In this document: positions 3,676 to 32,149 of the stretch, piece after piece
How the letters are laid out: every line of letters starts with the position of its first letter
How positions within the stretch are numbered: the first letter of the stretch is position 1
IMG/VR virus record: IMGVR_UViG_2529293147_000015
Source: a virus
Taxonomy: Duplodnaviria; Heunggongvirae; Uroviricota; Caudoviricetes
Strand: one strand, 5' to 3'
Length of the DNA: 49,846 nt
The notes under the pieces: generated by a model
Databases searched by the model: none
Told to the model about the DNA's origin: nothing
Seen by the model: the letters and a program-made list of their open reading frames with translations, nothing else
Translations under genes and position numbers: made by a program

Positions 3676-4275
3676 TCAGAATTTATAACCGACACCAACG
3701 ATGAAACCGTCAGTGCGCCAGTCACCACTGCCGGAGCCTTCATAAGCAATATCAATGGCCACGGATTCGGTCGGGTTAAACTGCACGCCAGCCCCCCACG
3801 CCAGAGACGTGTTGCTGTGGCGACCGTCATCACTTCCGGTCAGCACATCGTGCTTTTTCCCCTTGTTGTCAGTTACGCGGAGATAATCCCCGGAGAAAGT
3901 CGACACACGGCTGTAAGCCACACCCGCCATCGCATACGCGCTGAACCATTCATTCACGCGCACAGACGGCCCCGCCATTACGCTGAACCAGCGGTTACGA
4001 ACGGAATCTTCATGCCAGCGGGTATCGCTGTAACGGGTCAGCTGGCGATTCTTGTCTCCTGCATAGCTGAATGACGTCACCATCCCCAGTGTGTCCGTAA
4101 ACTCATAACGGTATTTCACGTTAATCCCGTTCAGATCATCACTGCCGGGGACGTTCGTCGAGGCATGAAGATACCCCGCGCTCAGCGTGGACTGATGTTC
4201 AGACGCCCATGCAGGCGCACCGGATACGGCCAGACAAATGGCTGCGGACAAAATGGCGGCATAAAGTTTACGCAT
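3676..4275 (-). CDS. lom: Outer membrane protein Lom (Ail/Lom family) moron
   Basis: MRKLYAAILSAAICLAVSGAPAWA signal peptide, ...GFIVGVGYKF C-terminal beta-barrel signature; position between J and stf as in lambda. Confidence 0.85.
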   Translation of the reverse strand: MRKLYAAILSAAICLAVSGAPAWASEHQSTLSAGYLHASTNVPGSDDLNGINVKYRYEFTDTLGMVTSFSYAGDKNRQLTRYSDTRWHEDSVRNRWFSVMAGPSVRVNEWFSAYAMAGVAYSRVSTFSGDYLRVTDNKGKKHDVLTGSDDGRHSNTSLAWGAGVQFNPTESVAIDIAYEGSGSGDWRTDGFIVGVGYKF

Positions 4276-17984: not shown

Positions 17985-18024
17985 TTTCTCAGTCTCCTGA
18001 TTTATCTGAATCACGGATCCACGC

Positions 18025-19365
18025 TTACGGCATACTCATCAGCAGTTCTTTTTCCCCGTTCCCGGCAGTTCCGCCACCGGAAACGGCACTGGCGGCATGC
18101 TGTGCCATGAAGCGCTCAAAAAGTGTTACCTGTGACGGTTGCGATACTGATGGCGCAGCTGCCAGCAGCGTTTTCGCCTGCTCCACTGTCATTCCCGGCT
18201 GTTCAGCCAGCGTCCGTGCCAGTTGTTCACGTCCTTTTGCTTCCGGCAACGCAATAATTTGATCGCCGGAACTTGCCGTGCCGGTTGCCGGTGCCGCTGC
18301 CAGTAATGTTTTTGCCTGCTCAACTGACATTCCCTGCTGACCTGCCAGCATCTGCGCCAGTTTTTCGCGTCCTTTCGCCTCCTGACAATTCAGGATCCCC
18401 ATCACGCGCTGATTTTCCTGGGACACCGCTTCAGCAACGGTGAGATTTTTTGGTGTCATCGTATTCTCCTGTGTAACAGAGTCGTTCAGAGCAGAAACCA
18501 TTACATCAACGGCATCTGCAGCATTAATCAGTTGATCAGCCAGGCCTGTATCAATGCCTGCCTGACCGTCATAAACGGCAGCCTCGGTATTCATCACCAC
18601 CTCTGAACTCAGCCCCGTATAAAGTGCCACCTTGTCGACAAACATCCGGCGGGCATCATCAATACGGCGCTGAAAATCCGCACGCACACCTGTCGGCAAC
18701 GCCTGAATACTGTTGCCGTCAACCTTGTGCTGCCCGGAGTAAATCAGCGTGATATCCACGCCTTCCTGTGCCAGTTGTTTCTCGTAACTGGTGTGCGCCA
18801 TCATCACACCAATCGAACCAATTTTTGCCGTCTGCGTGACCAGCCGACGCGTACAGGCCGCCGCCAGCAACATGGCGGCTGAACAGGCCATGTCATTACA
18901 CAGCGCCCACACGGGCTTCTGTTCCCGCAGACGGTAAATCATGTCAGCACAGTCAAACGCCCCGGCAGCCTGACCGCCCGGACTGTCGATATCCAGTAAA
19001 ATGCCGCGTACATCCGGGTCGTTCACCGCTGACTTAAGACGGGCAGTCAGACCGTCATAACTGGTCATACCGGAATATGGCTGCAGGGTACCCATTTTAT
19101 GTACCAGCGTGCCGCTCACCGGCAGAATGGCAATACCATTTTTCACCTGGTAACTCTTTACCGGACGCGGACCACCAGTCATATAATCGGTAACCTCCAG
19201 CTGCATACCATCGGCATCAAGCTGAACGGCCTGCTGCGGAACGGCAAGGCTGCCCGCCCCCATCTCCTTACCCAGTGCGCAAAAGAAAACCCGCGCATAG
19301 GCGGGTTCCAGTAAAAGCGGCTCATTAAATGCCATCGCGGCAATATGTGATAAATTACAGCGCAT
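18025..19365 (-). CDS. C: Minor capsid protein C / prohead protease (scaffold Nu3 expected in-frame at the 3' end)
   Basis: 446-aa ORF between B and D with ClpP/S49-like peptidase region. Confidence 0.8.
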   Translation of the reverse strand: MRCNLSHIAAMAFNEPLLLEPAYARVFFCALGKEMGAGSLAVPQQAVQLDADGMQLEVTDYMTGGPRPVKSYQVKNGIAILPVSGTLVHKMGTLQPYSGMTSYDGLTARLKSAVNDPDVRGILLDIDSPGGQAAGAFDCADMIYRLREQKPVWALCNDMACSAAMLLAAACTRRLVTQTAKIGSIGVMMAHTSYEKQLAQEGVDITLIYSGQHKVDGNSIQALPTGVRADFQRRIDDARRMFVDKVALYTGLSSEVVMNTEAAVYDGQAGIDTGLADQLINAADAVDVMVSALNDSVTQENTMTPKNLTVAEAVSQENQRVMGILNCQEAKGREKLAQMLAGQQGMSVEQAKTLLAAAPATGTASSGDQIIALPEAKGREQLARTLAEQPGMTVEQAKTLLAAAPSVSQPSQVTLFERFMAQHAASAVSGGGTAGNGEKELLMSMP

Positions 19366-20926
19366 CGCCTTTTTCTCCCGTTGTCTGTCGGATCTGCTGT
19401 TGAAACGCGTCCTTTATCCAGACCGGACGCGGAAGACCGGCAGCCTGTCGCTCCTGAGTTTCCCGTAGCTGCTGGCGGAAAATCTCCTGATAGTCATCCC
19501 CCATCAGGGCCAGCTCTTTCTCGTATGTACTCAGGCCGCCTTCAATGCGCATCACCGCTTCCTGCACTTCCTTAAGGCCATCAATCGCCATACGACCGGC
19601 ACCAATCCACTCGGCACGGCACCACCCGGAACGGGCCTCCCAGAATGAGAAACGGGATTTCGGCGGACGGATCACACCACGAATAAGGGCTTCCTCCATC
19701 CAGCAGGCAAACATCTGTGACGCCAGGCGACTGGCCACAAATTTTCGTTTTCCCATAAAATACCGCCACGACTCATTGGCGGATGCCCTGGCACTGGAAT
19801 AACTGACCTGTGAATAATCACGGGAAAGCTGCTCATACGACACACCCAGTCCGGCAGCAATGTAACGTAACAGCGCCTTTTCCAGTTCAGAAAAACCATT
19901 ATCCGCATTCTGGGCTGTCTGCAGATTCAGTGAATCTCCCGGGTAAAGATGCGGAATACGGACCCCGCCCAGTTTTACCGTATTGGTGGCGTAATAACGC
20001 GCGTAGCCTTTCATGATGGTGTTCAGGGGATTTTTACCTCCATCTCCCACCCCGGCGATATATTCAAACGCTTTTTCCGAATCCAGTGTGGATTCAATCG
20101 TGGCGGCATACATGGCGCGAACCACCGCCGACTGCAGTTGCGTGGCCTGCAGTGTGTCGAGCATCTTGAGACGCTCCATTACAGAATAAAACTGGTTGGC
20201 CCCGCGGGTCTGCCCGTCTTCCTGTGGCTGAAACACATGGATCATTCCCGGTCGTCCGGAAGGCAGTGTTGCCGTAATTCGTGTCCATTTACTGACACCG
20301 TAGCCGGGCCAGTCATCATCCTGAACATGGTAGGCCAGCGCTTTTCCGTGTCGGTTTATTTCCCCCCCGGCACGCATAAAACGATCGCTGGTACCATAAC
20401 CGGGTGTACTGACACGCTTCGGGCTGATGGTTTTGAATTTCGTCCGGAATAATGACGTGGATTCCGCATCCCATACGGGCTGGACAAAAATTTCACCGTT
20501 AAACGTATGGACCCCCACCCCTTCACGAATGAATTCGGTAAACGAACGACGCCCTTCCACATCCATCATACCAAACACCGGATCGCAGTATTCCATCCAC
20601 GCCGCCTCAACATCTTCAATAAAAGCATGTGAATCTGCTTCCGACATCCCCAGCCAGCGCCAGTTGGGACGGTAACTCAGACGAAACATGTGCCCGACAA
20701 TATGATCCTTATGAATTTCCACTGCATTCGATGCAATACCGTTGTTACGGACCAGATCATCCGCGCGGGCGTTACCCAGATGAATGGAAGGTAAGAGCGC
20801 CACGTCGGCACTTTCCGGTGCAGGCAGCCATTCTGCCATTTGCCCACCGAACCCGGAACCACCACCAGAATATCCCATGCTTTGCCGTAAAGGCTGCCCA
20901 TGAATATCCACCAGTTCCCCGTTCAC
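19355..20926 (-). CDS. B: Portal protein B
   Basis: 523-aa ORF immediately downstream of W and terminase A. Confidence 0.85.
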   Translation of the reverse strand: MNGELVDIHGQPLRQSMGYSGGGSGFGGQMAEWLPAPESADVALLPSIHLGNARADDLVRNNGIASNAVEIHKDHIVGHMFRLSYRPNWRWLGMSEADSHAFIEDVEAAWMEYCDPVFGMMDVEGRRSFTEFIREGVGVHTFNGEIFVQPVWDAESTSLFRTKFKTISPKRVSTPGYGTSDRFMRAGGEINRHGKALAYHVQDDDWPGYGVSKWTRITATLPSGRPGMIHVFQPQEDGQTRGANQFYSVMERLKMLDTLQATQLQSAVVRAMYAATIESTLDSEKAFEYIAGVGDGGKNPLNTIMKGYARYYATNTVKLGGVRIPHLYPGDSLNLQTAQNADNGFSELEKALLRYIAAGLGVSYEQLSRDYSQVSYSSARASANESWRYFMGKRKFVASRLASQMFACWMEEALIRGVIRPPKSRFSFWEARSGWCRAEWIGAGRMAIDGLKEVQEAVMRIEGGLSTYEKELALMGDDYQEIFRQQLRETQERQAAGLPRPVWIKDAFQQQIRQTTGEKGDAL

Positions 20927-21135
20927 AGCCCCACTCCTGCCGGGCCACGACGCCGTCCGGATACACCCAGCGCACTTTCCAGCTCTTCAATATACTGACG
21001 CAGTTCACCAATTGTCGCCCGCGAATACTGAACCTGACGCCCGTCCTTGCTGACGGAAACCACAGCACGTCCGATCATCAGTTCATGTAACGCCCGGCGG
21101 GCATCGCATAGCATTTCATGCGTATAAATCATCAC
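20923..21135 (-). CDS. W: Head-tail joining protein W
   Basis: 70-aa ORF between A and B. Confidence 0.7.
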   Translation of the reverse strand: MMIYTHEMLCDARRALHELMIGRAVVSVSKDGRQVQYSRATIGELRQYIEELESALGVSGRRRGPAGVGL

Positions 21136-23055
21136 TTATCCTCCACTCAGAGCAGCTGCGATTTCTTCAATAGTCATTTCATCGTCGTCCTGTTCATCTC
21201 TTCTGGCGCGGGCCAGTGCATCCAGATCCAGTTGCCACCGCTGAACGGAAATGCGCAGCGCTGCATAGGCATACACCAGACAGTCCAGAGCTTCATTACG
21301 CCGTTTTCTGGCATCCCACTGGAGTTTCACCCGCCCGTTCACAACTTTTTCAACCAGCTCTTCTGCCACGAGTTGTTTAGCTTCAACATCAGAAAAAATG
21401 TCCGGGTTATCCGGAAAACGGAAGGTATACGGTGCGACTTCACTGGGAGATACCACCGGCAGGGCAAAACGCGCATACAGCATTTCCTTGACGGTATCGG
21501 AACCCACCTCACACAAAAACACCCCACGCTGGTTTCGCTTTTTTGGCATGGTGATCACCGGCTTGCCGTACACCGACGCCCCTTTGATGGGGAGCACAAA
21601 AAAAGTGCCGTGTTTTCTGGATCGCTGATACACAATGTCCTGGTCAATACCACCGGTATCCCAGCAGACGCGGGAAATGGAAATTTCAGTGCCATCTGCA
21701 TGACGGTATTTTTTCCGGATCACGGCATCAACGCGTTTAAGGGTGTCCTCATCTTCCGGTCTCCCCATGATGATCTGCTTGTCAATCAGAAAAGCTTCTT
21801 CGCCAGGAGCCCAGCCCCAGACATAAATCTCATAACGGTTTTTCTGAGAGTCGATCCCTGCGGTCAGGTAAACCACCCGCAGGGGAACCTGCGCATCATA
21901 GTGGCAGACTTTTTCCAGCAACAACTCAAAGCTCAGTTTTTCTGCCACAGCCTCTTCATAAGGCTCCCCCAGCGTGGTGTTAATGAACGTCTTGACGCCA
22001 TTCGGATCCTTCAGTGCATCAAGCCAGTCATAAACAATCTGTACCCAGGTGGTGAACGGGCTGTATGCCGTCCAGATGTGGTACGAGATTGAGCGCGGTG
22101 GCGGGATTTCCTCATCACCGGCGCTGTAAAATGTCAGACCGTCACGCGTCCACATCCCGGTATTGTCACAAATCCACCGCCCGTCGGTCTGGTCAAGTTC
22201 CGACTGCCGGATCACACAGCCATTATGTTCACACAGGTAATACACCGTTTCCGGTTTACCCTTCTCCCATTTCAGGCCAAACGGCGTCGCATCATCGCCA
22301 AACTTCAGATACTGGGCTTCACCACAATGAGGGCAAGGGACATAAAATCGCATGAAATGCGCAGATTCGTTCGCGGCTTTTTCAATCTGGCAAAAACCTT
22401 TAATTTTGGGCGTTGAGCCGCGTATGGATTTAGGCCATACCGAACCTTCGATACGCTTATCGCCAAGCAGGGTTGGTGAACCTTCTTTTTCCACATCCGG
22501 TTCAAACGAGGAGAGTTCGTCATAGCAGACCACATCCACAGATTTTTCACGGTAGTTTTTGGCAGCAGCTCCGCCCAGACACCAGAATCCCACACCGGAG
22601 GAGAAACGTTTCAGGGTAAGCGTGTTGTCCCGATGTTTTCTGCCAAACCACGGAGCCAGCTCCAGTAATACAGGAACGTCTCTTATCGTTGGTTCGACAT
22701 GGGATTTCATAAAATCTTCTGCCGCAGAATCTGTCGGCTGAAAAAGCAGGCTGTTACGGGATTTGTGTTCAATAAAATAAGCCTCCACCCCCAACAGCAT
22801 TTTGGTGTAACCAACACGCGCCGATTTAATCAGATTAACGGTGCGGATCCGGTCATTCCCCATGCTGTTCATGATGGCAACCTGAAACGGCAGTGTTTCC
22901 CATTGCCCGGGAGTATATGAAGACTCTTTTGGCAGATAATAATACTGATCAGCCCACTGAACTGTCGTCAGTGGTACCGGAATATTGAGAGATACAAGCC
23001 CTGTTGCTATCGCACCGGCTGCATTAGCTGCCTTCTGTGCGTCTGAAATCATCAA
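21136..23055 (-). CDS. A: Terminase large subunit A
   Basis: 639-aa ORF (lambda gpA is ~641 aa) downstream of Nu1. Confidence 0.9.
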
Positions 23056-23572
23056 TCCACCCGCCTACGCTCTCACCAGCTTTAGCTGCAACGTTGGAGG
23101 CTTTTGCGATTTCAGTTTTCACCACATCAAGGTGTGACGGTGAAATATCCGGATATTTACGCTGTAATGTCAGCGGCACACGTACAAGTATCCCCGAAAT
23201 CTCCTGTGCCACACGTTGCAGAATGAAGGTAAACAATTCCGTTTCCAGTACCAGCCCTTCTTCGCGGGCATTTTTCAGTTCCTGTGCATCAGCCTGTGCT
23301 TTTGTGAGTCGGTAGCGCTCATAGTCAATGGTGCCGGGTTGTAAATATGATTCCGCAGCCGCACGCAAATCCTCGGTCTCTTTGCGGAGTTTTTCGTTTT
23401 CAATATCGGCTTCGCGCTGCGCATACCACTGAATTGCCATGGCGGTATCAAATACAGATTCAACCCCCTTACTACCACCAGAGACACAAGAGAGCCCCTG
23501 AGACTGCCAGCGTTCAATCGTTCGTGGATCCACGTTGAAAATTTCCGCGAGCTTCTTTTTGTTAACCTTCAT
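23024..23572 (-). CDS. Nu1: Terminase small subunit Nu1 (start at [12 protein letters not shown] preferred)
   Basis: Motifs [38 protein letters not shown] match lambda Nu1. Confidence 0.85.
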
Positions 23573-23699
23573 AAAACATTTCCATATCAAATGCAGGGTC
23601 CGACATGGAAGTGCTCAAAAACGTCTTTTTCGGGCACTTTCATGTCGTACCTTTTACGGATGTGATTTATGAAAAAACAATGAGTTATACACGAGAAGT

Positions 23700-23765
23700 A
23701 CCGACACGCTTTTTCCCGAAAAATTTTCATAAATAGCGAAAATCCGCGCCGCTGCCGCCCCGTGG
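23700..23765 (-). other. cos site (cosN plus flanking cosB-type sequence)
   Basis: Minus-strand sequence GGGGCGGCAGCGGCGCGGATTTTCGCTATTTATGAAAATTTTTCGGGAAAA resembles the lambda cos region, ~130 bp upstream of Nu1. Confidence 0.6.
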
Positions 23766-24201
23766 CAGGCCACCCCACCGGAAGGACCCGCACAAATGAG
23801 AGCGTTTGTCATTAACATTTACAGATAAGATGACGTACATCATTGAAACGCCATTCAGCCATATACCGGCAGCATTCGTAGTTGCACTCCGTAACTCTGC
23901 GACTAAGGTTAAAAACATGGCCCTCTTTTGCCACCGGCAAATCTTCAATGGATTTCCCCTGCCGGTTTTTTATTTTCGTCGATGCATAACATTGCATTTA
24001 CATCAATAGCGGCTATTGTCATTAGTATGTTACATCAATGCATGGGTGGTATTGGCGGTCTTCGCCGGCCGCTTCTGTGTAGCTGCTCCCTGTGACCGGT
24101 TTTTTATTTCTCACATTACAGCAACCCCTTAGAGTGAAGGGCTGCTGTAATGCCTGTTACTCACGAATCAGGCGAGCACTCTTACTATTCATTTCAATAC
24201 G

Positions 24202-24552
24202 CTAATACTGCGGTTTACCATCAATGATGTCTGTCATTACGAACACCTCACCCGGCTGCAGTTCAACTGCACCTTCCGGTAATTTCATACCGGCAAATAC
24301 CGGACAGCCCGGATGGCGATCATCTTCTGTTGCTCCCAGCATTGACTCACCAAACCACGCCGTTGTGGCGCGACCATCAGCAGCCTTGTAGTGGATCAAG
24401 TACTGGTTTTCGCCATCCGCATACTGCGCGCGAGCTTTAACCTCACCCCATTCATCACTGATGCGCATCTCCACCAGTTGAGACAACTCAAACTTAAACG
24501 GGACAGTAGCGGCACCAATTACAATCGGTTTGTTTTCTGTTGTTTCCATCAT
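24202..24552 (-). CDS. Hypothetical protein (moron between lysis cassette and cos)
   Basis: 116-aa ORF from MMETTENKPIV...; no family recognised. Confidence 0.45.
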   Translation of the reverse strand: MMETTENKPIVIGAATVPFKFELSQLVEMRISDEWGEVKARAQYADGENQYLIHYKAADGRATTAWFGESMLGATEDDRHPGCPVFAGMKLPEGAVELQPGEVFVMTDIIDGKPQY

Positions 24553-24723
24553 CGTCTCCTGATATCGAAGCCCGTCGCCGCACCGGGCACTGATCAACAT
24601 TTGAGTATTCGCGGCGAAAGAAAGAATTTATTTTATTGAGTAGCCACAAACACAGAATTTCATGCTTTCCGGACGCTGACGCATCCTTCATTTTTCAGCA
24701 AAATATTCTGCTCTTACAGGCGA

Positions 24724-24906
24724 TCAGTTCTGCATACAATGCCGGACACCGTCGACAATTTTGCAGACCTGAGAAGCTGTATCGAAAAGCTGGCGCGCCT
24801 TATCCAGGCTGACGCATCCCACCAATAAAAAAGGCACCAGTATCGCTACCAGTGCCCATTTCGCCGCCGTTCGCGGCATTCTGTGTGTCCAGTGTTTTCG
24901 CTTCAT
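24724..24906 (-). CDS. Small lipoprotein (possible o-spanin-like or exclusion lipoprotein)
   Basis: MKRKHWTHRMPRTAAKWALVAILVPFLLVGC lipobox; short Cys-containing mature part. Confidence 0.4.
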   Translation of the reverse strand: MKRKHWTHRMPRTAAKWALVAILVPFLLVGCVSLDKARQLFDTASQVCKIVDGVRHCMQN

Positions 24907-24910
24907 CTCA

Positions 24911-25045
24911 CTATCCACCAATCAATCCGGATAAGCTCAATACTCGCCAGGTGGTGGAAATGAAAATGGCAACCAACATTGCTGAAAATGAAAGGCCAAC
25001 AACCACACAGAGAATTCGCGCCAGTTTTATAATGCTATCTGACAT
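24911..25045 (-). CDS. Small membrane protein
   Basis: 44-aa ORF MSDSIIKLARILCVVVGLSFSAMLVAIFIS... with one TM helix, packed between neighbours. Confidence 0.3.
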   Translation of the reverse strand: MSDSIIKLARILCVVVGLSFSAMLVAIFISTTWRVLSLSGLIGG

Positions 25046-25062
25046 ATTTACCCCTGCCCCAC

Positions 25063-25266
25063 TTACGATTTCACAGCAATGATCAATTTTGCCATCCCAT
25101 ACAGCATCGGAGACACAGCGATACCGACAGCCACCCACTTAATGGCAAAAGCCACCGCTCTGCTGATGTCATCAGTTACGGGCGCTTTCAATTCAAGGCC
25201 GTTTTTCATAGTCAACCTCAACAGAATTAGTTTATACTTCCTCATGTTCTCCTTTGCCTTACCCAA
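25063..25266 (-). CDS. Small membrane protein downstream of endolysin
   Basis: 67-aa ORF with C-terminal hydrophobic segment. Confidence 0.35.
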   Translation of the reverse strand: MGKAKENMRKYKLILLRLTMKNGLELKAPVTDDISRAVAFAIKWVAVGIAVSPMLYGMAKLIIAVKS

Positions 25267-25405
25267 GGCCAGAAACAGAAAACCCCGGACTGTTACCGCA
25301 GCCGGGGTTTTTGCTATCTAATGCTATGCCCCTTACTTTTGCTCATCGTAGCCCCAGAAAAGAGCCTGCATGAGTTGAGGGTGTTCAGCACTTCAGTGTC
25401 AGTTT

Positions 25406-25972
25406 TTAAACTGCTACGCGCTCTTTCATCCAGCCGTAAACAAACGACTCGTTAGCCTCCCGTTTCTCTGCCAGCTCCAGATAGCGGTCACCCTGCGTAC
25501 AGTTCAGTGCGGTCAGCATTACCAGCTCTCCATCCCTGCCACGATTTTTCAGATATACCCGTAATGCATTAAGAGTACGCGGCCCGATACGTCCGTCTGC
25601 ATCCATATCCGGATACAGTTTCCCGCGCAGGTTGAAAACGTTCAGCCAGCGTTGAAGCATTTTTGACGCCACGGCTGGCCCCATGTTGACGCCCGTATCA
25701 CACAACTCTGCGGCAATATCAGGGGATAACGCTGCCACCTGGTCAAAACGTGGTCCATACCAGTAGTCCGCCTCGAGTATTTCCAGCGCCTGCCCGCGCG
25801 TCAGGTCACGCATATCGCCGCGATATCCGTGAGCGCGGGCGACTTTTTCTGTAATACCCCATTTTGTCGGTCCGCCTTTATCATCCGGGTGATTGACGTA
25901 ACCGCCCTCTTTTCCCAGAACTTCGTCAAAAATTTCATCTTTCGACTTCATATCAGCGCCTTCGTAATACAA
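25406..25972 (-). CDS. Endolysin, GH108-type lysozyme with peptidoglycan-binding domain
   Basis: N-terminal EVLGKEGGYVNHPDDKGGPTKWGIT motif and C-terminal PG-binding-like region. Confidence 0.8.
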   Translation of the reverse strand: MYYEGADMKSKDEIFDEVLGKEGGYVNHPDDKGGPTKWGITEKVARAHGYRGDMRDLTRGQALEILEADYWYGPRFDQVAALSPDIAAELCDTGVNMGPAVASKMLQRWLNVFNLRGKLYPDMDADGRIGPRTLNALRVYLKNRGRDGELVMLTALNCTQGDRYLELAEKREANESFVYGWMKERVAV

Positions 25973-26231
25973 AGATTTTTGAAACGTTCCCGCGTGCGCG
26001 AATCACCAGCACGCAGAACAGCAGATTAAGCCCCACCGCCAGCCAGTTCACCGCTAACGGGCGACCACACAGATAGCTGAGGGGCACAAAGGCATACAGC
26101 AGCATCAGCAGCCAGGCCAGCCATGACATCAGCGGTTTGTGTCTGGAGTCACGACGACGATAAAAAAAGAGCGTCAGCACGATAACCGTGCATAACGCCA
26201 CATTCAGCAATCCGGGAAGGTTACTTAACAT
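25953..26231 (-). CDS. Lysis membrane protein (holin/antiholin candidate)
   Basis: ~92-aa ORF from MLSNLPGLLNVALCTVIVLTLFF... with 2-3 TM segments, overlapping the endolysin start. Confidence 0.5.
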   Translation of the reverse strand: MLSNLPGLLNVALCTVIVLTLFFYRRRDSRHKPLMSWLAWLLMLLYAFVPLSYLCGRPLAVNWLAVGLNLLFCVLVIRARGNVSKIFVLRRR

Positions 26232-26613
26232 TGCCGCCTCCTCCGCCCCGCAGGCGGGAGAACACACCGGACACCAGTGATGCAATATCCTGCTGGTGGA
26301 TGAACGAGAGAATCTTCACCGACACCACTGACACCAGTACTGCACACAGTGCGTCGACAGGCGCTCCGTCAAACCCTGTGTGCTTTACCAGCCAGGATGC
26401 CAGAACCCCTGCCCCCAGCACGCCGATAATGAACGACACCAGAAAATGCGCCGCCACACGCCAGGCTGAAAGCGCCTGCGGAATTGTTGCCACAAATAAC
26501 GCCCCGGCGAACGCACCAAACACAATCCCGAAATCCGTTCCGGTAAACAGCCCGAATCCCGTCGCCCCACCGAGCGCCGCAGCCGTACCGGAACCGGATA
26601 AGGGTTCAGACAT
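26221..26613 (-). CDS. Putative holin (start at MSEPLSG, RBS AGGAGA)
   Basis: 131-aa Gly/Ala-rich multi-TM protein directly upstream of the lysis genes. Confidence 0.55.
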   Translation of the reverse strand: MSEPLSGSGTAAALGGATGFGLFTGTDFGIVFGAFAGALFVATIPQALSAWRVAAHFLVSFIIGVLGAGVLASWLVKHTGFDGAPVDALCAVLVSVVSVKILSFIHQQDIASLVSGVFSRLRGGGGGNVK

Positions 26614-26705
26614 ACTTTTTTCTCCTGTAAATAAAAAAGGGCCACCAGCGGCCCGTAAAAAACAATACCCCGTCAAAGGCACCCGCAGATGCCTTTTGTG
26701 TGGTG

Positions 26706-26858
26706 TTATTCAGATTTACGCAGTAAAGGCCGGAGCACGACCAGCGCCATCACCACCAGCACACCATCTGCCAGCACCGACATCAGCCGTCCGGTGAAAT
26801 CCACTGCCACTACCAGAAACAGCAGGATGGCAGCCAGCACAAGGCGCGCACTTTTCAC
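26706..26858 (-). CDS. Small hydrophobic protein (GTG start overlapping the stop of the TerB-like gene)
   Basis: 50-aa ORF VKSARLVLAAILLFLVVAVDF...; below ORF-track cutoff; GTGA start/stop overlap. Confidence 0.3.
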   Translation of the reverse strand: MKSARLVLAAILLFLVVAVDFTGRLMSVLADGVLVVMALVVLRPLLRKSE

Positions 26859-27280
26859 AGGTACTGCTCCAGCGGTAGCTGAAGCGCCTGCGCAATTTTC
26901 TTGAGCTGTGCTTCTTCATCCGGACCAATGCCATCCTGGTCAGCGATATCCAGACACAGGCACAGCACATTAACTGCATCATCAGTACCGGCGACATCAG
27001 CCAGCTGACGAAGGGCTTCGGCATTGGCTGAACGCGGGGATGCTTCATAACGGGCGCGGATATTGGCGCTCATCTGGGCAATCTCACCGGAGAACGGCGC
27101 AAAGGCAGGAAGTGCTGCAATGGTTTTCTCCAGTACTGCGATTTCTTTCGCATCACAGGTGCCGTCAGCGTATGCAATGGAATACGCGCCCCAGACGGTC
27201 GCCTCCACTGCGTCGCGGTTCTCCATCTTCTTCACTTCGGTAATGGCCTTGCGGGTTTTCTTTTTGAAAATACCAAACAT
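26855..27280 (-). CDS. TerB-like (tellurite-resistance TerB domain) protein
   Basis: 141-aa ORF with TerB-like pattern ...AYADGTCDAKEIAVLEKTIA...LCLCLDIADQDGIGPDEEAQLKKIAQALQL. Confidence 0.55.
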   Translation of the reverse strand: MFGIFKKKTRKAITEVKKMENRDAVEATVWGAYSIAYADGTCDAKEIAVLEKTIAALPAFAPFSGEIAQMSANIRARYEASPRSANAEALRQLADVAGTDDAVNVLCLCLDIADQDGIGPDEEAQLKKIAQALQLPLEQYL

Positions 27281-27455
27281 CGTGACTTTTCCTTTTAGTG
27301 GGTGAGCCTGCGCCCGGTGGTGACCAGCCCACAGAGAAAGTCACACTGACCATCCCGTAAGCTCACCCCTGAAAGGCTCTGTGGTTTTTTGATATTCGCC
27401 GGGCGTGGCGCGGATATGAAAAAGGCCCGCCGAAGCGAGCCTGGAAAAATAAGCG

Positions 27456-27532
27456 TGGCGCGTTGTACTGGATTCGAACCAGTGACCGATTGCTTAGAAG
27501 GCAATTGCTCTGTCCGGCTGAGCTAACAACGC
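27456..27532 (-). tRNA. tRNA-Arg (anticodon TCT)
   Basis: Clean cloverleaf: acceptor GCGTTGT/ACAACGC, anticodon loop CTTCTAA, T-loop TTCGAAT, 3' CCA. Confidence 0.85.
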
Positions 27533-27549
27533 ATAATGCAGATAATAGA

Positions 27550-27625
27550 TTGCCATCGGGGACCCGAGCCCCACACAGCCAGTTTCGAAAGCTGGCACTC
27601 TCTGTCGATGAGCTAATGGCGGTAT
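27550..27625 (-). tRNA. tRNA-like element, degenerate or unusual (possible Arg, anticodon-loop candidate TCG)
   Basis: TAGCTC D-arm start and hairpin arms present, but D- and T-loops non-canonical and acceptor pairing imperfect. Confidence 0.35.
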
Positions 27626-27629
27626 GTGA

Positions 27630-27705
27630 TGGTGGCCCTTGCTGGATTTGAACCAGCGACCTGGCGATTATGAGTCGCTCGCTCTCACCACTGAGCTAAA
27701 GGGCC
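27630..27705 (-). tRNA. tRNA-Ile2 (anticodon CAT, ileX/ileZ-like)
   Basis: GGCCCTTTAGCTCAGTGGTGAGAGC...CTCATAA...GGTTCAAATCCAGCAAGGGCCACCA. Confidence 0.85.
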
Positions 27706-27754
27706 GGGAGCAGAATAATAATGGTGCGTAATTAATTCTGCAATCTCATCCGTT

Positions 27755-28804
27755 TCAAACGATTAAATCCTGAACTTCCCTGACTGTCTGTTCAAAACGT
27801 CCGGTCTCCAGCTCAACACCAATCGCACAACGCCCCAGTGCCATCGCCGCTTTTACCGTTGAACCTGAACCCATAAAAAAATCCGCAACCAAATCACCAG
27901 GGTGACTGCTGGCCTCAATTATCTGCCGCAACATATCTGCCGGTTTTTCACAGGGATGTTTGCCCGGATAAAACTGCACGGATTTATGCGTCCAGACATC
28001 CGTATACGGAACGGCAGCCGATACGGAAAAATAACGCCGCAAAGATTTATACTCTTCCAGCAGGCTGGCATATTGCCGGTTCAGTTCACTGTATGTGCTG
28101 ACCAGCTGGTGGTGTGGCTTTTCCAGTTCCCCTCGCTGATGCTTTTCTGCCGCAACACGCGCAAACAACGCCTGCAATTTGTTGTAATCCCCCTCGTTCG
28201 GTAATTGCCACTGACTGGTACCAAACCAGTGCGAAGCCATGTTTTTCTTTCCGGTGGCTTCCGCTATCTGTTTTGACGTTATTCCCAGTGATTCACGCGC
28301 ATCACGAAAGTAAGAAATCAGCGGGGCCATGACGTGCTGTTTTAGCTCACGCCCCTTTGCCTCATAGCCGTCATTTTTGGGCTGGTATGGCCCCTGATAA
28401 TGTTCTGCAAACAGAATGCGCTCTGTTGCCGGGAAATACGCCCGCAGGCTTTCCTTGTTGCACCCGTTCCAGCGCCCTGACGGCTTCGCCCAGATAATGT
28501 GGTTCAGCACATTAAAGCGCTGACGCATCATGATTTCGGTGTCAGATGCCAGGCGATGACCACAGAACAGGTAAAGACTTCCTGCGGGCTTCAGTCCCCG
28601 CCAGAACTGCGCCAGACACTGATTCAGCCATTTCAGGTAATCATCGTCGCCCTTCCACTGGTTATCCCAGCCCTCGGGCTTCACTTTAAAGTATGGCGGG
28701 TCTGTGACTATCAGATCGACAGAATTTTCCGGTAAGGTCTGGATAAATTCCAGACAATCAGCGTTGATTAACTCACAACTGGATATTTTTACAGTATTAG
28801 CCAT
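27755..28804 (-). CDS. Orphan DNA N6-adenine methyltransferase
   Basis: TDPPY catalytic motif and FFMGSGST AdoMet-binding motif; no adjacent restriction gene. Confidence 0.85.
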   Translation of the reverse strand: MANTVKISSCELINADCLEFIQTLPENSVDLIVTDPPYFKVKPEGWDNQWKGDDDYLKWLNQCLAQFWRGLKPAGSLYLFCGHRLASDTEIMMRQRFNVLNHIIWAKPSGRWNGCNKESLRAYFPATERILFAEHYQGPYQPKNDGYEAKGRELKQHVMAPLISYFRDARESLGITSKQIAEATGKKNMASHWFGTSQWQLPNEGDYNKLQALFARVAAEKHQRGELEKPHHQLVSTYSELNRQYASLLEEYKSLRRYFSVSAAVPYTDVWTHKSVQFYPGKHPCEKPADMLRQIIEASSHPGDLVADFFMGSGSTVKAAMALGRCAIGVELETGRFEQTVREVQDLIV

Positions 28805-28940
28805 AGATCAATAAGCACTTCTCTGATAGGCTCATACCGCTTTTGCGCAAAGCAGATGGGCCTGAGGTTTGCTTGTGACCACAACGCATGAGCAGATGGC
28901 TGGCAGGTGCCGCTAACACCCACCAGCCGCCCATTACCAC

Positions 28941-28967
28941 AAATTAAAAAACCTTCACCGCGGAAGG
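28941..28967 (-). terminator. Intrinsic terminator upstream of the methyltransferase gene
   Basis: Minus-strand hairpin CCTTC-cgcggt-GAAGG followed by TTTTTTAATTT. Confidence 0.45.
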
Positions 28968-29152
28968 CGTCTGTAACAACCGAACTGATAATCTGCCAGA
29001 CCCGCCATAACAAGCTGGGTCAGTATTAACTGGCAGCGTTCGCGTGAAAGGTAAGTATTCTGCGCAATCTCCCCGACGGTCGCCGGTTCGGTGACGCTTA
29101 ATTCATTAAACACCACTCTGGCAGTTTCGGTCATATCCTGCTGTTTTAGCAT
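28955..29152 (-). CDS. Small hypothetical protein, possibly HTH-like (start at MLKQQDM assumed)
   Basis: 66-aa ORF; alternative upstream start at 29275. Confidence 0.35.
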   Translation of the reverse strand: MLKQQDMTETARVVFNELSVTEPATVGEIAQNTYLSRERCQLILTQLVMAGLADYQFGCYRRLPR

Positions 29153-29274
29153 GTCTTTTTCCCTTTTCTGGTTAACGTGACATACCAATAACTCTTGTCG
29201 AAAAAGCCAGCAAGCTGAAAGACCGGTATTCGCAACCACCAGCACGTTTAACGTACTGCGCCGTTTTTCGGACA

Positions 29275-29297
29275 CAAAAAACCGCCTGGCGGCGGGT
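29275..29297 (-). terminator. Intrinsic terminator (tR'-like candidate) in the Q-late gene interval
   Basis: Minus-strand hairpin CCGCC-gcca-GGCGG followed by TTTTTTGT. Confidence 0.45.
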
Positions 29298-29433
29298 TTA
29301 AGCTGTGTGGCGAAGTAACCACTCTTAACAGCATATTTGATTTTTTACGATTGTAAACATCTGTTCGGCGATGTCTTTTTACGATAAAATTTAGTCGAAC
29401 TTTTCTTGTACGATAATTCACAAGCAGGCCCAT

Positions 29434-29913
29434 ATGAAAAAAATAGCATTGACATTATTAAGTACATTGATCATTACAGGGTGTACGGCTCAATCTTCCG
29501 CAGAAAACAGAAATAGTGATCATTATGCGTATTTAAAGAAATGCGAAAATATCACCTTGGACAACACGCCCCAGCAAGTTAACAAAAATAATTTTTTAAA
29601 GCTTCTATATAAGGGAGAAATGATAATCAACACTACACAATTTATTACTTCCAGCAAGCAAGATATGTTAGTGAGAGTTGGCTGGGATCCCGATATATCA
29701 AAAGCAATCGCTGACTGCGACATCGAGCAAATGATGATCGTTTTAAATGCAGCAAAAGAACCATTTGAAAAACTCAAGGCAAACACAAAATCACCTACAG
29801 AGCGAGAAGCATTAATCAAAACGTATAGCGCATGGGAAAACTACGTAAGTTCTCCATCCAGAGAAAACAAAAATAATTTTAACGAAAAAGCGAGTTATTA
29901 TAAAAACATTTAA
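29434..29913 (+). CDS. Lipoprotein moron, AT-rich, convergent to Q
   Basis: MKKIALTLLSTLIITGC lipobox; visibly lower GC than flanks; upstream TACGAT repeats; downstream inverted repeat ACCCTCTCC-gca-TGGAGAGGGT. Confidence 0.65.
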   Translation: MKKIALTLLSTLIITGCTAQSSAENRNSDHYAYLKKCENITLDNTPQQVNKNNFLKLLYKGEMIINTTQFITSSKQDMLVRVGWDPDISKAIADCDIEQMMIVLNAAKEPFEKLKANTKSPTEREALIKTYSAWENYVSSPSRENKNNFNEKASYYKNI

Positions 29914-29957
29914 TTCATACCCTCTCCGCATGGAGAGGGTATGTGAGTTAAGTTTTA

Positions 29958-30332
29958 TCAGTCCATGTCCAGCTTGATATCAAGCATCATCAACATGCCG
30001 TCAACTATCCCTTCAGCCTTTTGCAACAAACGGCCAACCCAGCAATCCGAACGACCATGCTTTCGTGCTAGCGCCATAAACGTCATGCCCGCCACGTAAT
30101 AATCTACCAGCAAATCGTGTAATTCTTTGTTGTTCTTATTCAACCGGGCCATACAGCCACAAATGATCATTGCGTCATCGTCGGAACATTGCGGACGCGA
30201 TTTAACTTTCGACGGTATTAATCCTTTAAAGCCAGCAGCAATCGATGGCCATGTGACATCCTCATGATTATTTGCCACCCACGCTCCCCAACGCTCAAGA
30301 ACCATCTGAATATCACGTGCCATCGTTACCAC
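29958..30332 (-). CDS. Q: Late-gene antiterminator Q
   Basis: 124-aa [31 protein letters not shown]... with Cys/His cluster, typical of Q-family proteins of E. coli prophages. Confidence 0.75.
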
Positions 30333-30684
30333 CTGTAATTTCGTAAATCTTCACGCCCAGCCGACCACCAGGTACAAGCTGACTGCGCACAATATTAATT
30401 TCATCAAACTGCTCGTCGTCGATAAGCAGTCCCGCATGTGTCAGTGCATCCAGTGGCGCTTTCAGGATATTGTCCAGGTCACGACGGCGCTTATCCGGTG
30501 GCTCCACAATAATCCTGATCGCCAGCCTTCCGGACAGATTTAATTTCAGTCGCTGCTGGCGAACAATGAGCGCCACATCACGGCGATAACGCTCACCGGC
30601 TTTTGATACAAAATATGTACTGCCACGACGTCGCCAGTAGGTGTTCACCGTTGGCGGGTAAGGCAAAACAAACTCTATACGCAT
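30313..30684 (-). CDS. rusA: Holliday junction resolvase RusA
   Basis: RRRDLDN catalytic motif, ~123 aa. Confidence 0.85.
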
Positions 30685-30696
30685 CAGTAACCTCTT

Positions 30697-31746
30697 TTAC
30701 CCGAGCACGCCGGTTGCAAAGGCGTGATCAAGAAAACGAAAAATTAAATCAATCTGGGAACCATGCTTTTCTTCAAATGCCAGCGGATCAGCATGAAGTT
30801 CATTGTGATGCTCCCGGCACAGCGGTAGCGTGAAAATATCGTGGGCTTTTGTCCCCATCCCTCCCTGACCGTGACCAATCAGGTGATGGGGATCGTCGGC
30901 TGGCTTACCACAACATGCACACGGCTGTGTCTTAACCCAGCGCGTGTACTTTTCGTTAACCCAGCGGCGACGTTTAGGTCGCTTCATGAAAGATTCAGGA
31001 GACTCCGGATCAACGGCAATGCTGACCACCGTCTTTTCCTGTGGTGGGTTCTGTTGCTGGTGGGCGTGAGGCGGTAGCACAATATTTTTTGTGCGCTGCT
31101 TCAGTATGCTGGTGGCTGTCTGCTCTCCCGGTATGATGTCGCTTTCACGGTACACAGAGCGGATTTTTTCCGCACGTAACCCCAGAGAACGACGTAATAC
31201 TGCCTCCGGAAGCGCGTCCGCCACCTGATTGCGGACCGCCCACCAGGATAATTCAGCCAGCGATAATTCCCGCTCCTGCGTGCCATTCACTGCATGGCGT
31301 ATGACGTCAATCATCCATGCTGACAGGTTTTGATGAGCAAGTTGCCCGAGTGATTCGGATGTCTGGTCACGCAGCTGGTTGTCGCAGTGCCAGCACAGCA
31401 CCATCGCGCCGGTACCGTAACGATGTATGACGGTTTCACTGTGATGGTAGTCACCATGAGGCCACTGGCAGGATTTAACATGACGCAGGAGCCAGTCAGA
31501 CAGTGCACCAGCGCCGCCGGCAGCACGAATCACCCGCTCATCGCTGAAAAATGGCAGCAGAGATTTGTCTTCCGCCAGCGGCTGGCGAACGGCAGGAACG
31601 ACCCCGGACGGCAGACCGCGCATGCTTTTTGGCTCCGGTTCAACCAGCACTCTGCCGTTATGGAATACCTGCATGGATTCACGACCTGGCTTAACGATAA
31701 CCACCCCAAGTTCCGGCACCAGAACAGGTCGAAGTAATACCCGCAC
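30697..31746 (-). CDS. NinG/DUF968-like phage protein with C-terminal Cys/His (HNH-like) motif
   Basis: C-terminal ...CACCGKPADDPHHLIGHGQGGMGTKAHDIFTLPLCREHHNELH; located in the nin region beside rusA. Confidence 0.55.
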   Translation of the reverse strand: MRVLLRPVLVPELGVVIVKPGRESMQVFHNGRVLVEPEPKSMRGLPSGVVPAVRQPLAEDKSLLPFFSDERVIRAAGGAGALSDWLLRHVKSCQWPHGDYHHSETVIHRYGTGAMVLCWHCDNQLRDQTSESLGQLAHQNLSAWMIDVIRHAVNGTQERELSLAELSWWAVRNQVADALPEAVLRRSLGLRAEKIRSVYRESDIIPGEQTATSILKQRTKNIVLPPHAHQQQNPPQEKTVVSIAVDPESPESFMKRPKRRRWVNEKYTRWVKTQPCACCGKPADDPHHLIGHGQGGMGTKAHDIFTLPLCREHHNELHADPLAFEEKHGSQIDLIFRFLDHAFATGVLG

Positions 31747-31747
31747 G

Positions 31748-32149
31748 TTACCTCCAGATGCGTTGCTGGAATGTGCGGGACGGACGCGGTGGGCGTTCGG
31801 AATAAGGGAGTCTGACGTAGATTATCCAGTGACGATAATCGAGGCTGAGGGCTTTCCTAAACTCATACCCACGTCTGCGGTAGTTATGAATCAGCCATTC
31901 GGCCTGTTCTTCAGTGCAGGGGTCGTGCTGATACCAGTCATATTTGAATGCGTGCGAACACCGCCCGTGCCTGCTGGCACGAACGGTATCAGAATTGTGT
32001 AATTTGGTCTTGTGCGCCATCTGTTTTCTCTGCTGGCGCAGCAGGTGCCAGTTGTTCAGGCTGGCATGTGGATTGTAAACCAGGATGCTCAGAAAAAACA
32101 AAACCCGCCGAAGCGGGTTAAGTGCGGGTGCATTGAGGATGCCTGACAC
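31748..32149 (-). CDS. Hypothetical nin-region protein (start uncertain)
   Basis: ORF with Cys/His-rich basic C-terminal part; 1-nt gap to the downstream gene. Confidence 0.4.
   Translation of the reverse strand: MSGILNAPALNPLRRVLFFLSILVYNPHASLNNWHLLRQQRKQMAHKTKLHNSDTVRASRHGRCSHAFKYDWYQHDPCTEEQAEWLIHNYRRRGYEFRKALSLDYRHWIIYVRLPYSERPPRPSRTFQQRIWR

Follow-up and report, generated by a model that had tools for sequence, protein, structure and literature searches.

The 49,846-nucleotide IMG/VR virus record IMGVR_UViG_2529293147_000015, a member of Caudoviricetes whose whole stretch is referred to below as the window, carries a cluster of four small genes between its GH108 endolysin gene and the cos region. 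One of these genes encodes a 60-aa prelipoprotein, and its comparison across related prophages suggests a partnerless lysis lipoprotein that would disrupt the outer membrane and thereby fill the role of the spanin pair Rz/Rz1, a proposal to which we give roughly even chances. The gene appears to occupy a slot equivalent to the spanin slot, and there is no Rz/Rz1-like pair anywhere in the 49.8-kb prophage. The cluster as a whole is a mosaic of three independent modules inside a Q-dependent late operon and not a single system, because each of its elements also occurs without the others. The genes of this region are as follows, TMa and TMb being the names given here to two small proteins with a single transmembrane domain (TMD) each:

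26221-26613, minus strand: Phage_holin_8 holin (Pfam PF16931, E 3.6e-21), which opens the lysis cassette together with the next holin
25953-26231, minus strand: Phage_holin_3_7 holin with three TMDs, its gene overlapping the Phage_holin_8 gene (Pfam PF05449, E 4.6e-21)
25406-25951, minus strand: endolysin with GH108 and PG_binding_3 domains, the upstream anchor of the cluster (PF05838, E 1.9e-26; PF09374, E 3.7e-26; phrog_315)
about 25271-25312, minus strand: intrinsic terminator hairpin in the gap between endolysin and TMa, predicted by RNA folding
25063-25245, minus strand: TMa, 60 aa from ATG (phrog_1115, E 6.9e-45)
24911-25045, minus strand: TMb, 44 aa (phrog_4906, E 1.4e-18)
24724-24906, minus strand: prelipoprotein, 60 aa, with lipobox LVG/C (phrog_7528, E 4.9e-37)
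24202-24552, minus strand: soluble 116-aa protein of the phiP27 L33 family (phrog_1935), with an AGGAG Shine-Dalgarno sequence upstream
below 24202, minus strand: cos region, then Nu1 (23024-23590) and TerL, by Pfam and PHROG assignments

The lipoprotein and its place in the lysis cassette

A preliminary description of this region had listed two single-transmembrane open reading frames (ORFs), a 60-aa lipoprotein and a 116-aa soluble protein downstream of the GH108 endolysin and had reported no canonical Rz/Rz1. The coordinates and PHROG matches agree with that inventory, and a search for a conventional spanin bore out the second statement. When a lipobox was sought in the six reading frames of the whole window, with each possible start codon considered, a single ORF was found, namely the 60-aa prelipoprotein. 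No ORF in the window combined an N-terminal TMD with a long, charged, coiled-coil-like periplasmic domain, and tblastn with two lambda-type Rz queries gave no match in positions 18001-32000, around the lysis genes (a lambda Rz1 query was run against the fetched loci only). An Rz1 embedded in a longer Rz frame, which the preliminary description had conceded it might have missed, was therefore found neither by the six-frame scan of the window nor by the Rz search around the lysis genes.

The prelipoprotein consists of a long basic n-region (MKRKHWTHRMPRTAAKW), an h-region, the lipobox and a mature lipopeptide of 30 aa (CVSLDKARQLFDTASQVCKIVDGVRHCMQN). C31, C48 and C57 are invariant in the aligned homologues, as is G30, and residue +2 is V, A or T, never Asp. 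Lipoproteins whose lipobox is not followed by Asp at +2 are delivered to the outer membrane by the Lol system, and the residues found at this position point to outer-membrane sorting of the present protein. The mature part is 30 aa long in nearly all homologues (24-32 aa across the wider family), free of Pro and strongly amphipathic (hydrophobic moment, muH, 0.5-0.6); the net charge varies between -1 and +3 among the family members tested, the window peptide having +1 and the commonest allele -1. No hydrophobic segment follows Cys31, and the C-terminus reads ...VRHCMQN. The signal peptide is also conserved at the protein level, with many invariant residues and a ratio of nonsynonymous to synonymous polymorphism (pN/pS) of 0.30. 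Protein-level conservation covers the N-terminal 17 residues, and homologues have T, V or I in place of Met10, the residue at which the RefSeq records and Kongari et al. start the protein (window 24879; 51 aa). Since residues 1-9 are conserved, Met10 is variable and in other loci the upstream ATG adjoins the stop codon of the endolysin gene or overlaps with it, the real start appears to be the ATG at 24906, which gives the 60 aa of the preliminary description and not 51.

An exhaustive search with a profile hidden Markov model over 1.84 billion representative proteins yielded 21 matches to the lipoprotein family, all of 44-85 aa except for one of 111 aa and one of 220 aa, which look like fusions or miscalled ORFs. 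Their common features are a signal peptide, an LLVG/C lipobox and a C...C-x8/9-C pattern in the mature part; a comparison of the lipoprotein profile with PDB sequences returned nothing meaningful. One E. coli homologue (P0111) contains a tandem 10-residue duplication (QLFDTASQVC), which results in a 40-aa mature peptide with an extra Cys. At the nucleotide level, a terminator-like hairpin with a T-run (WALVAILVPFLL) is present at 24832-24857 on the minus strand, within the part of the gene that codes for the h-region of the signal peptide. Synonymous divergence is lower here than elsewhere in the gene (pS 0.09 vs 0.20 in the mature part), and the segment may be under an extra constraint at the RNA level. 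In addition, the 23-nt motif GCAGAATATTTTGCTGAAAAATG, a small hairpin at 24689-24711 on the minus strand, directly follows the lipoprotein stop codon; the same motif was found after the lysozyme stop codon in E. coli O157:H7 (locus L169) and in phage PhiR5_2 (locus L007), and it may represent a module boundary or recombination junction.

Each of the four small ORFs matches a PHROG family of unknown function (E 1e-18 to 1e-68), and none of the four proteins has a significant match in Pfam, NCBIfam or PADLOC. Across related loci, pN/pS was 0.23 for the lipoprotein gene (60 distinct alleles, 0 stops), 0.31 for TMa (28 alleles), 0.36 for TMb and 0.43 for the L33-family gene. As two spurious ORFs of the cos region, used as a control, gave values of 0.44-0.53, the lipoprotein stands out clearly in this test, TMa and TMb do so only to a modest degree, and L33 is indistinguishable from the control. 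All four genes are probably under purifying selection, with a signal that is clear only for the lipoprotein, and the lack of conservation against which the preliminary description had cautioned was not seen.

The genetic setting of the lipoprotein was analyzed in two sets of 80 IMG/VR loci, one chosen by the lipoprotein and the other by TMa, and the reference proteins were mapped onto all of them. In 35 loci the lipoprotein gene comes straight after the endolysin gene, with no TM genes in between, and these compact loci leave no room for the gene of an inner-membrane spanin subunit (i-spanin). In 34 loci the endolysin gene immediately before the lipoprotein start is of the M15 type, the commonest junction (27 loci) being a 14-nt spacer with an AGGTG Shine-Dalgarno sequence; in locus L030, the lipoprotein start overlaps the stop codon of a GH108 gene (ATGA). 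The lipoprotein gene is the part of the cluster that stays constant. Alternative inserts between endolysin and lipoprotein genes comprise TMa/TMb, a 93-aa protein, a KilA-N protein and a 90-aa gene of phiP27.

The equivalence of this slot to the spanin slot is suggested by cassettes of the same type that continue in different ways. Yersinia phage vB_YpM_44 has the same holin_8/holin_3_7/GH108 cassette, with an endolysin 89% identical to that of the window, and there the cassette is followed by an overlapped pair of genes for a 92-aa i-spanin (TMD plus charged helical domain) and a 69-aa outer-membrane spanin subunit (o-spanin). Similarly, E. coli Combat2C1 has a lambda-like Rz with embedded Rz1 next to its holin/M15 cassette, and holin/M15 cassettes of the Combat2C1 type in E24377A, ECL27977 and STEC711 are followed by the lipoprotein gene. 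The latter gene was detected in 354 of 5426 complete E. coli genomes (about 6.5%), and in this species the holin pair (at least 80% of the query covered) was found in 373 genomes vs 349 for the lipoprotein gene, so that the two are nearly equal in frequency. Apart from these genomes, a record named 'Actinobacillus phage vB_Apl-pPE4' (PP818812.1, locus L009) contains an E. coli-type lysis region at ~88% DNA identity, with TerB, holins, an M15 endolysin, KilA-N and an unannotated lipoprotein gene, and its host assignment looks odd.

The 80 loci selected by TMa were distributed as follows with regard to the lipoprotein gene and a lambda-type Rz:

lipoprotein intact, lambda-type Rz absent: 41 loci
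lipoprotein absent, lambda-type Rz present: 34 loci
lipoprotein absent, lambda-type Rz absent: 3 loci
lipoprotein pseudogene, lambda-type Rz present: 1 locus (L150)
lipoprotein pseudogene, no lambda-type Rz, another spanin-like pair upstream: 1 locus (L124)
lipoprotein intact, lambda-type Rz present: 0 loci

Of the pseudogene copies, the one in L124 is frameshifted and fused and the one in L150 has two internal stops. In these loci the lipoprotein thus excludes an intact Rz/Rz1 from the same slot, and it decays where a spanin is present.

Six divergent lipoprotein homologues extend this picture to other phage types; they come, among others, from a Mu-like phage (GemA, Mor, Portal_Mu), from lambdoid prophages whose holin is of the lambda-S type (holin_3_1) and from a prophage that has baseplate genes (Baseplate_J). 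In all six, the lipoprotein gene lies 0-10 nt after the preceding gene or overlaps it by 4 nt; the preceding gene has an M15_4, GH108 or PG_binding_3 match in five of them, and in the sixth (P0235) it has no Pfam match and is M15-like by eye. The holins of these loci are either holin_3_1 or holin_8 plus holin_3_7, the genes 3' of the lipoprotein encode, where read, soluble proteins without a TMD, and no i-spanin was found next to the lipoprotein in any of the six. Taken together, the holins that accompany the lipoprotein belong to three families and the endolysins to at least two, and no holin family, endolysin family or membrane protein is constant, so that no phage-encoded partner is conserved with it. 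In two distant loci (L177, 481-732; L182, 3676-3894), the lipoprotein gene shares its last 14 nt with the next gene, whose product is a conserved, acidic and soluble protein of 72-83 aa without a TMD; the L182 copy matched phrog_9518 (unknown function).

One member of the family has already been placed in the spanin literature. In Kongari et al. 2018 (PMC6139136), the spanin of phiP27 is listed among the 'separated' two-component ones; each of its subunits forms a singleton family, and its combined periplasmic length of 62 residues is the shortest in their set. According to their coordinates, the phiP27 o-spanin is the homologue of the window's lipoprotein, and an ORF of 64 aa that starts with TTG is the i-spanin (NC_003356, 20348-20542; L001 3780-3974, minus strand of the locus). 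This ORF is antisense to a 90-aa phrog_36812 gene, has no PHROG match itself and was detectable in 2 of 139 lipoprotein loci, in one of these at 43% identity. Because it is unconserved, antisense and without a PHROG match, the i-spanin call is most likely an artefact, and the lipoprotein appears to have been mis-filed as half of a two-component spanin. A survey of the literature on spaninless phages, orphan o-spanins, disruptin and phiP27 revealed no experimental work on the lipoprotein family.

Proposed role of the lipoprotein and competing explanations

In the mechanism proposed here, the 60-aa prelipoprotein would act as the fourth gene product of the lysis cassette and do the job of lambda Rz/Rz1. 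After Sec export, lipidation at Cys31 and cleavage, a 30-residue amphipathic lipopeptide with two further invariant Cys residues would build up during late gene expression and weaken the outer membrane from its inner leaflet. The weakening might proceed by membrane perturbation and activation of the outer-membrane phospholipase OmpLA, as for colicin lysis proteins, or by binding to some component of the host envelope, and the outer membrane would then give way after destruction of the murein by the holin and the GH108 endolysin. The long, basic and conserved signal peptide may also contribute, as does its stable counterpart in the release protein of cloacin DF13, and the low pN/pS of the window's signal peptide would fit a dual role of the kind found in colicin lysis proteins. 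A membrane-bridging or membrane-fusing spanin is not envisaged, because the peptide could not extend as far as the inner membrane and lacks a conserved partner encoded by the phage: a 30-residue helix is ~4.5 nm long (about 10 nm when fully extended) and the periplasm is ~20-25 nm wide. With somewhat less confidence, short of even, the lipoprotein is considered to represent a third, single-component class of phage outer-membrane disruptor beside spanins and disruptin, and to be the phage counterpart of bacteriocin release proteins (BRPs).

The likeness to colicin lysis proteins or BRPs (ColE7 Cel, pCloDF13 BRP) lies in a prelipoprotein of 45-60 aa with a mature part of ~28-30 aa, in the place of the gene at the end of an operon that is switched on shortly before the producer dies, in a role in envelope permeabilisation (proposed only, for the window lipoprotein), and in the signal peptide, which is biologically active in colicin lysis proteins and unusually conserved in the window lipoprotein. 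The mature colicin lysis protein is a 28-aa outer-membrane lipoprotein that activates phospholipase A, and its signal peptide is lethal alone (PMC2896534 and its references). Unlike these proteins, the window lipoprotein is phage-encoded beside an endolysin, has no Pfam Lysis_col match and possesses two extra invariant Cys residues. Disruptin (gp28 of phage phiKT; bioRxiv 10.1101/515445) is likewise one small protein for which outer-membrane disruption has been proposed, in a phage without spanins, but it is a cationic antimicrobial peptide and carries no lipid anchor, whereas the peptide described here is predicted to be lipid-anchored and has a low net charge, though it is amphipathic. The u-spanin of T1 (gp11) shares with it a single lysis-cassette gene with an N-terminal lipoprotein signal; however, u-spanin has a C-terminal TMD and a periplasm-spanning domain, neither of which is found in the window lipoprotein.

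Several points weigh against such a role. The functional evidence for the lipoprotein family is all positional or comparative, the sampled loci are mostly closely related E. coli prophages and hence not independent, and the systematic Rz search across them covered the lambda type only. Searches of Pfam, NCBIfam and PADLOC at E <= 1 linked the lipoprotein neither to colicin lysis proteins nor to entericidins or Rz1, so that the OmpLA-type mechanism is only an analogy and does not imply family membership. The AlphaFold2 (AF2) model of the lipoprotein is a single long helix of low confidence (mean predicted local distance difference test score, pLDDT, 69.9), which is uninformative with regard to a disulfide. 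It is also possible that a host-encoded inner-membrane partner, or an unrecognised phage-encoded one, exists. Finally, the slot between the lysis genes and cos is a known insertion hotspot, in which a late-expressed exclusion lipoprotein could also sit.

That the lipoprotein is a genuine o-spanin, forming a complex that bridges and fuses the two membranes with an unrecognised inner-membrane partner (TMb/TMa, the holin or a host protein), is considered unlikely, although its homologue in phiP27 was classed as a separated o-spanin by Kongari et al. 2018 (PMC6139136). With o-spanins such as lambda Rz1 and the phiP27 singleton family, it has in common an outer-membrane lipobox, the position of its gene in the lysis cassette 3' of the endolysin and in the Rz/Rz1 slot, and conserved periplasmic Cys residues, as in most spanins; moreover, TMb ends 4 nt before the lipoprotein start in the window. 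However, TMa/TMb are missing in ~45% of the lipoprotein loci, are found with canonical Rz/Rz1 elsewhere and have periplasmic tails of at most about 15 aa, the 'i-spanin' of phiP27 is not conserved, and the variety of holins and endolysins leaves no constant phage-encoded partner, whereas an o-spanin has a cognate i-spanin. The mature part, at 30 aa and predicted to be helical, also falls short of the combined periplasmic length expected of spanins, making bridging geometrically implausible. It contains 0 Pro residues, compared with 10 Pro in 40 aa of lambda Rz1, and in the window its gene is neither embedded in nor overlapped with another gene. The suggestion of a non-canonical spanin system in the preliminary description therefore survives in part: the lipoprotein alone fits the spanin slot, by its coupling to the endolysin gene and its exclusion of Rz/Rz1, but TMa and TMb, with their short tails and their co-occurrence with Rz/Rz1, do not qualify as partners.

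A moron-type outer-membrane lipoprotein, serving exclusion like Cor or T5 Llp or serum resistance like Bor, with the outer membrane disrupted in some other way, appears improbable as well. The protein is small, its Cys pair is disulfide-capable like that of Llp, and its gene lies near the position of lambda bor, a known hotspot, but the exclusion lipoproteins known to us adjoin tail or receptor-binding genes and not lysis cassettes. No sigma-70-like promoter was found upstream of the gene on its strand, and in many loci the gene is translationally coupled to the endolysin gene or at most 14 nt away from it. Exclusion of intact Rz/Rz1 and decay beside a spanin are not accounted for by a moron, and PADLOC gave no match. 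The absence of a spanin would not be unheard of in itself, since no identifiable spanin was present in 91 of 677 surveyed phages, about 13% (Kongari et al. 2018, PMC6139136).

It is very improbable that TMa, TMb, the lipoprotein and the 116-aa protein form one co-adapted accessory lysis unit or non-canonical spanin system. The genes are contiguous, on one strand and tightly spaced in the window, an identical arrangement recurs in some E. coli prophages (e.g., L010-L016), and all four proteins were found sequence-identical in E. coli genomes on consecutive locus tags. Nevertheless, the 35 loci in which the lipoprotein follows the endolysin without TM genes are matched by 35 in which TMa/TMb occur with Rz/Rz1, TMa/TMb are present in 1753 complete E. 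coli genomes vs 354 for the lipoprotein, and the L33-family gene is found in only part of the loci and also in unrelated phages.

Neighbouring modules and the prophage

TMa has a basic N-terminus and a single C-terminal hydrophobic segment with about 4 residues beyond it; an alternative TTG start at 25266, which is also the end coordinate of the region in the preliminary description, would lengthen it to 67 aa. The TMb gene starts 17 nt after TMa, and its product has one TMD and a C-terminal tail of about 15 aa. TMb always follows TMa, in lipoprotein and in Rz contexts alike. Public records name TMa 'transmembrane protein' or 'hypothetical', and the sole Pfam match of TMb is DUF3930 at E 0.075, under the family cut-off. 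The TMa/TMb region was detected in about 32% of the 5426 complete E. coli genomes. Among the TMa-selected loci, 35 of 80 have the two genes between the gene of a lysozyme of the SAR (signal-anchor-release) type and canonical embedded Rz/Rz1; likewise, they are located between lysozyme and Rz in phage PhiR5_2, and the order in E. coli O157:H7 is holin, YdfR, lysozyme, TMa, TMb, Rz. As they are usually placed between lysozyme and canonical Rz/Rz1, TMa and TMb do not appear to be spanin substitutes, and both were ruled out as i-spanin candidates on account of their short periplasmic tails and this co-occurrence. With regard to a holin or antiholin, no significant Pfam, NCBIfam or PADLOC match was found for either protein, and each has a single TMD.

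The terminator upstream of TMa has the stem CCCCGG-CTG ... CAG-CCGGGG followed by UUUUCUGUUUCU, and a 69-nt segment folds at -28.3 kcal/mol; a consensus terminator scan missed this hairpin owing to a bulge in the stem. A hairpin is present 5' of TMa in all three contexts compared, i.e., the window, O157:H7 (L169, ~2455-2490) and PhiR5_2 (L007). The stem sequences of the three differ and the T-tract and Shine-Dalgarno sequence are the same. Since the hairpin is kept in all three contexts, it is regarded as the 5' edge of the TMa/TMb module, and terminator-TMa-TMb appears to be a separately mobile cassette that is independent of the lipoprotein. A terminator amid the late operon would presumably be passed by Q-modified polymerase only. 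Given this terminator, the tight coupling to the next gene and the lack of a detected promoter, TMa and TMb would be two tiny inner-membrane proteins made only from the Q-modified late transcript. Their most likely role, which is put forward tentatively, is a modulation of lysis timing at the level of the holin or inner membrane, the alternative being an exclusion or toxin role. A comparable case is Lcc6 of Shewanella LambdaSo (65 aa), which is of similar size, has one TMD and is encoded in or near a lysis cassette, and which shows that a small single-TMD protein can be required at the holin step (bioRxiv 10.1101/2024.01.23.576932). Unlike Lcc6, TMa/TMb occur with unrelated holin/endolysin sets, and the likeness is one of size, TMD and position.

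The 116-aa protein has a conserved core of ~60 aa and a variable C-terminus and lacks a signal peptide and a TMD. Besides the lipoprotein loci, the L33 core was found between terS and the head-tail adaptor gene of P2-like ESSI2 phages and among small genes of Burkholderia and Bordetella phages. The AF2 model is a small beta-barrel (core pLDDT about 76-83) whose fold resembles the HspQ/YccV-like SH3 beta-barrel (PDB 5ycq). At the level of sequence and profile, no match to HspQ/YccV was obtained in Pfam or among PDB profiles at E <= 10, and hhalign against HspQ gave a probability of 0.7%. The protein is treated here as the product of an optional cytoplasmic SH3-like accessory gene, and it would have no part in lysis. 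The preliminary description had alternatively suggested an unrelated moron at the position of lambda bor, which holds insofar as the 116-aa gene seems to be an optional accessory. However, neither this gene nor TMa/TMb shows a classical moron promoter, a consensus sigma-70 scan of the minus strand from 23500 to 27500 having found none, which is weak negative evidence; in addition, the terminator lies upstream of TMa and not downstream as in morons. The GC content of the cluster is not markedly deviant. Just 3' of the 116-aa gene, at the edge of cos, a 17-bp near-perfect hairpin (CATTACAGCAGCCCTTC...GGGGTTGCTGTAATG on the minus strand) is present at 24114-24152; no U-tract follows it on either strand, so that it is not a classical terminator.

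The other landmarks of the window are listed below:

29958-30332: Q
47591-48886: integrase
3676-4275, minus strand: Lom, an outer-membrane protein of the Ail/Lom family (Pfam, E 1.6e-120), among the tail genes

As integrase, Q, tail genes and Lom are all contained in it, the 49.8-kb window is essentially an almost complete lambdoid prophage, and its host is E. coli, judging from the identical copies of the four small proteins in genomes of this species. The endolysin of the prophage is soluble, without a SAR or signal sequence; its start codon was chosen after a 546-nt RefSeq homologue. Lom represents a classical moron. The interval between Q and the holin genes contains a TerB-like 'tellurite resistance' gene (phrog_632; 26855-27280), tRNA-Arg(tct) (27456-27532), tRNA-Met(cat) (27630-27705) and a DNA methyltransferase gene (27755-28804), all on the minus strand. 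It is in this interval that Shiga toxin (Stx) phages carry stx, and stx2e is found at the corresponding position in phiP27.

Implications for phage lysis

For spaninless phages, disruptin is to our knowledge the sole alternative means of breaching the outer membrane that has been described. The lipoprotein family offers a concrete and genetically tractable candidate in E. coli lambdoid prophages, including Shiga-toxin phages. With regard to annotation, the i-spanin call of phiP27 would be corrected and the lipoprotein start would be moved from 51 to 60 aa, and terminator-TMa-TMb would be recognized as a very common, unstudied module in lysis cassettes of E. coli prophages, O157:H7 included. 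If the proposed role is true, the 'shortest two-component spanin' of phiP27 would be an annotation artefact, and the lipoprotein would be a modular replacement of Rz/Rz1 in lambdoid, Mu-like and other enterobacterial phages, among them the Stx2e phage phiP27. If the lipoprotein works alone, it would be a very small outer-membrane-active lipopeptide, the spanin slot could host a protein of a different mechanism, and phage lysis would be linked to colicin release.

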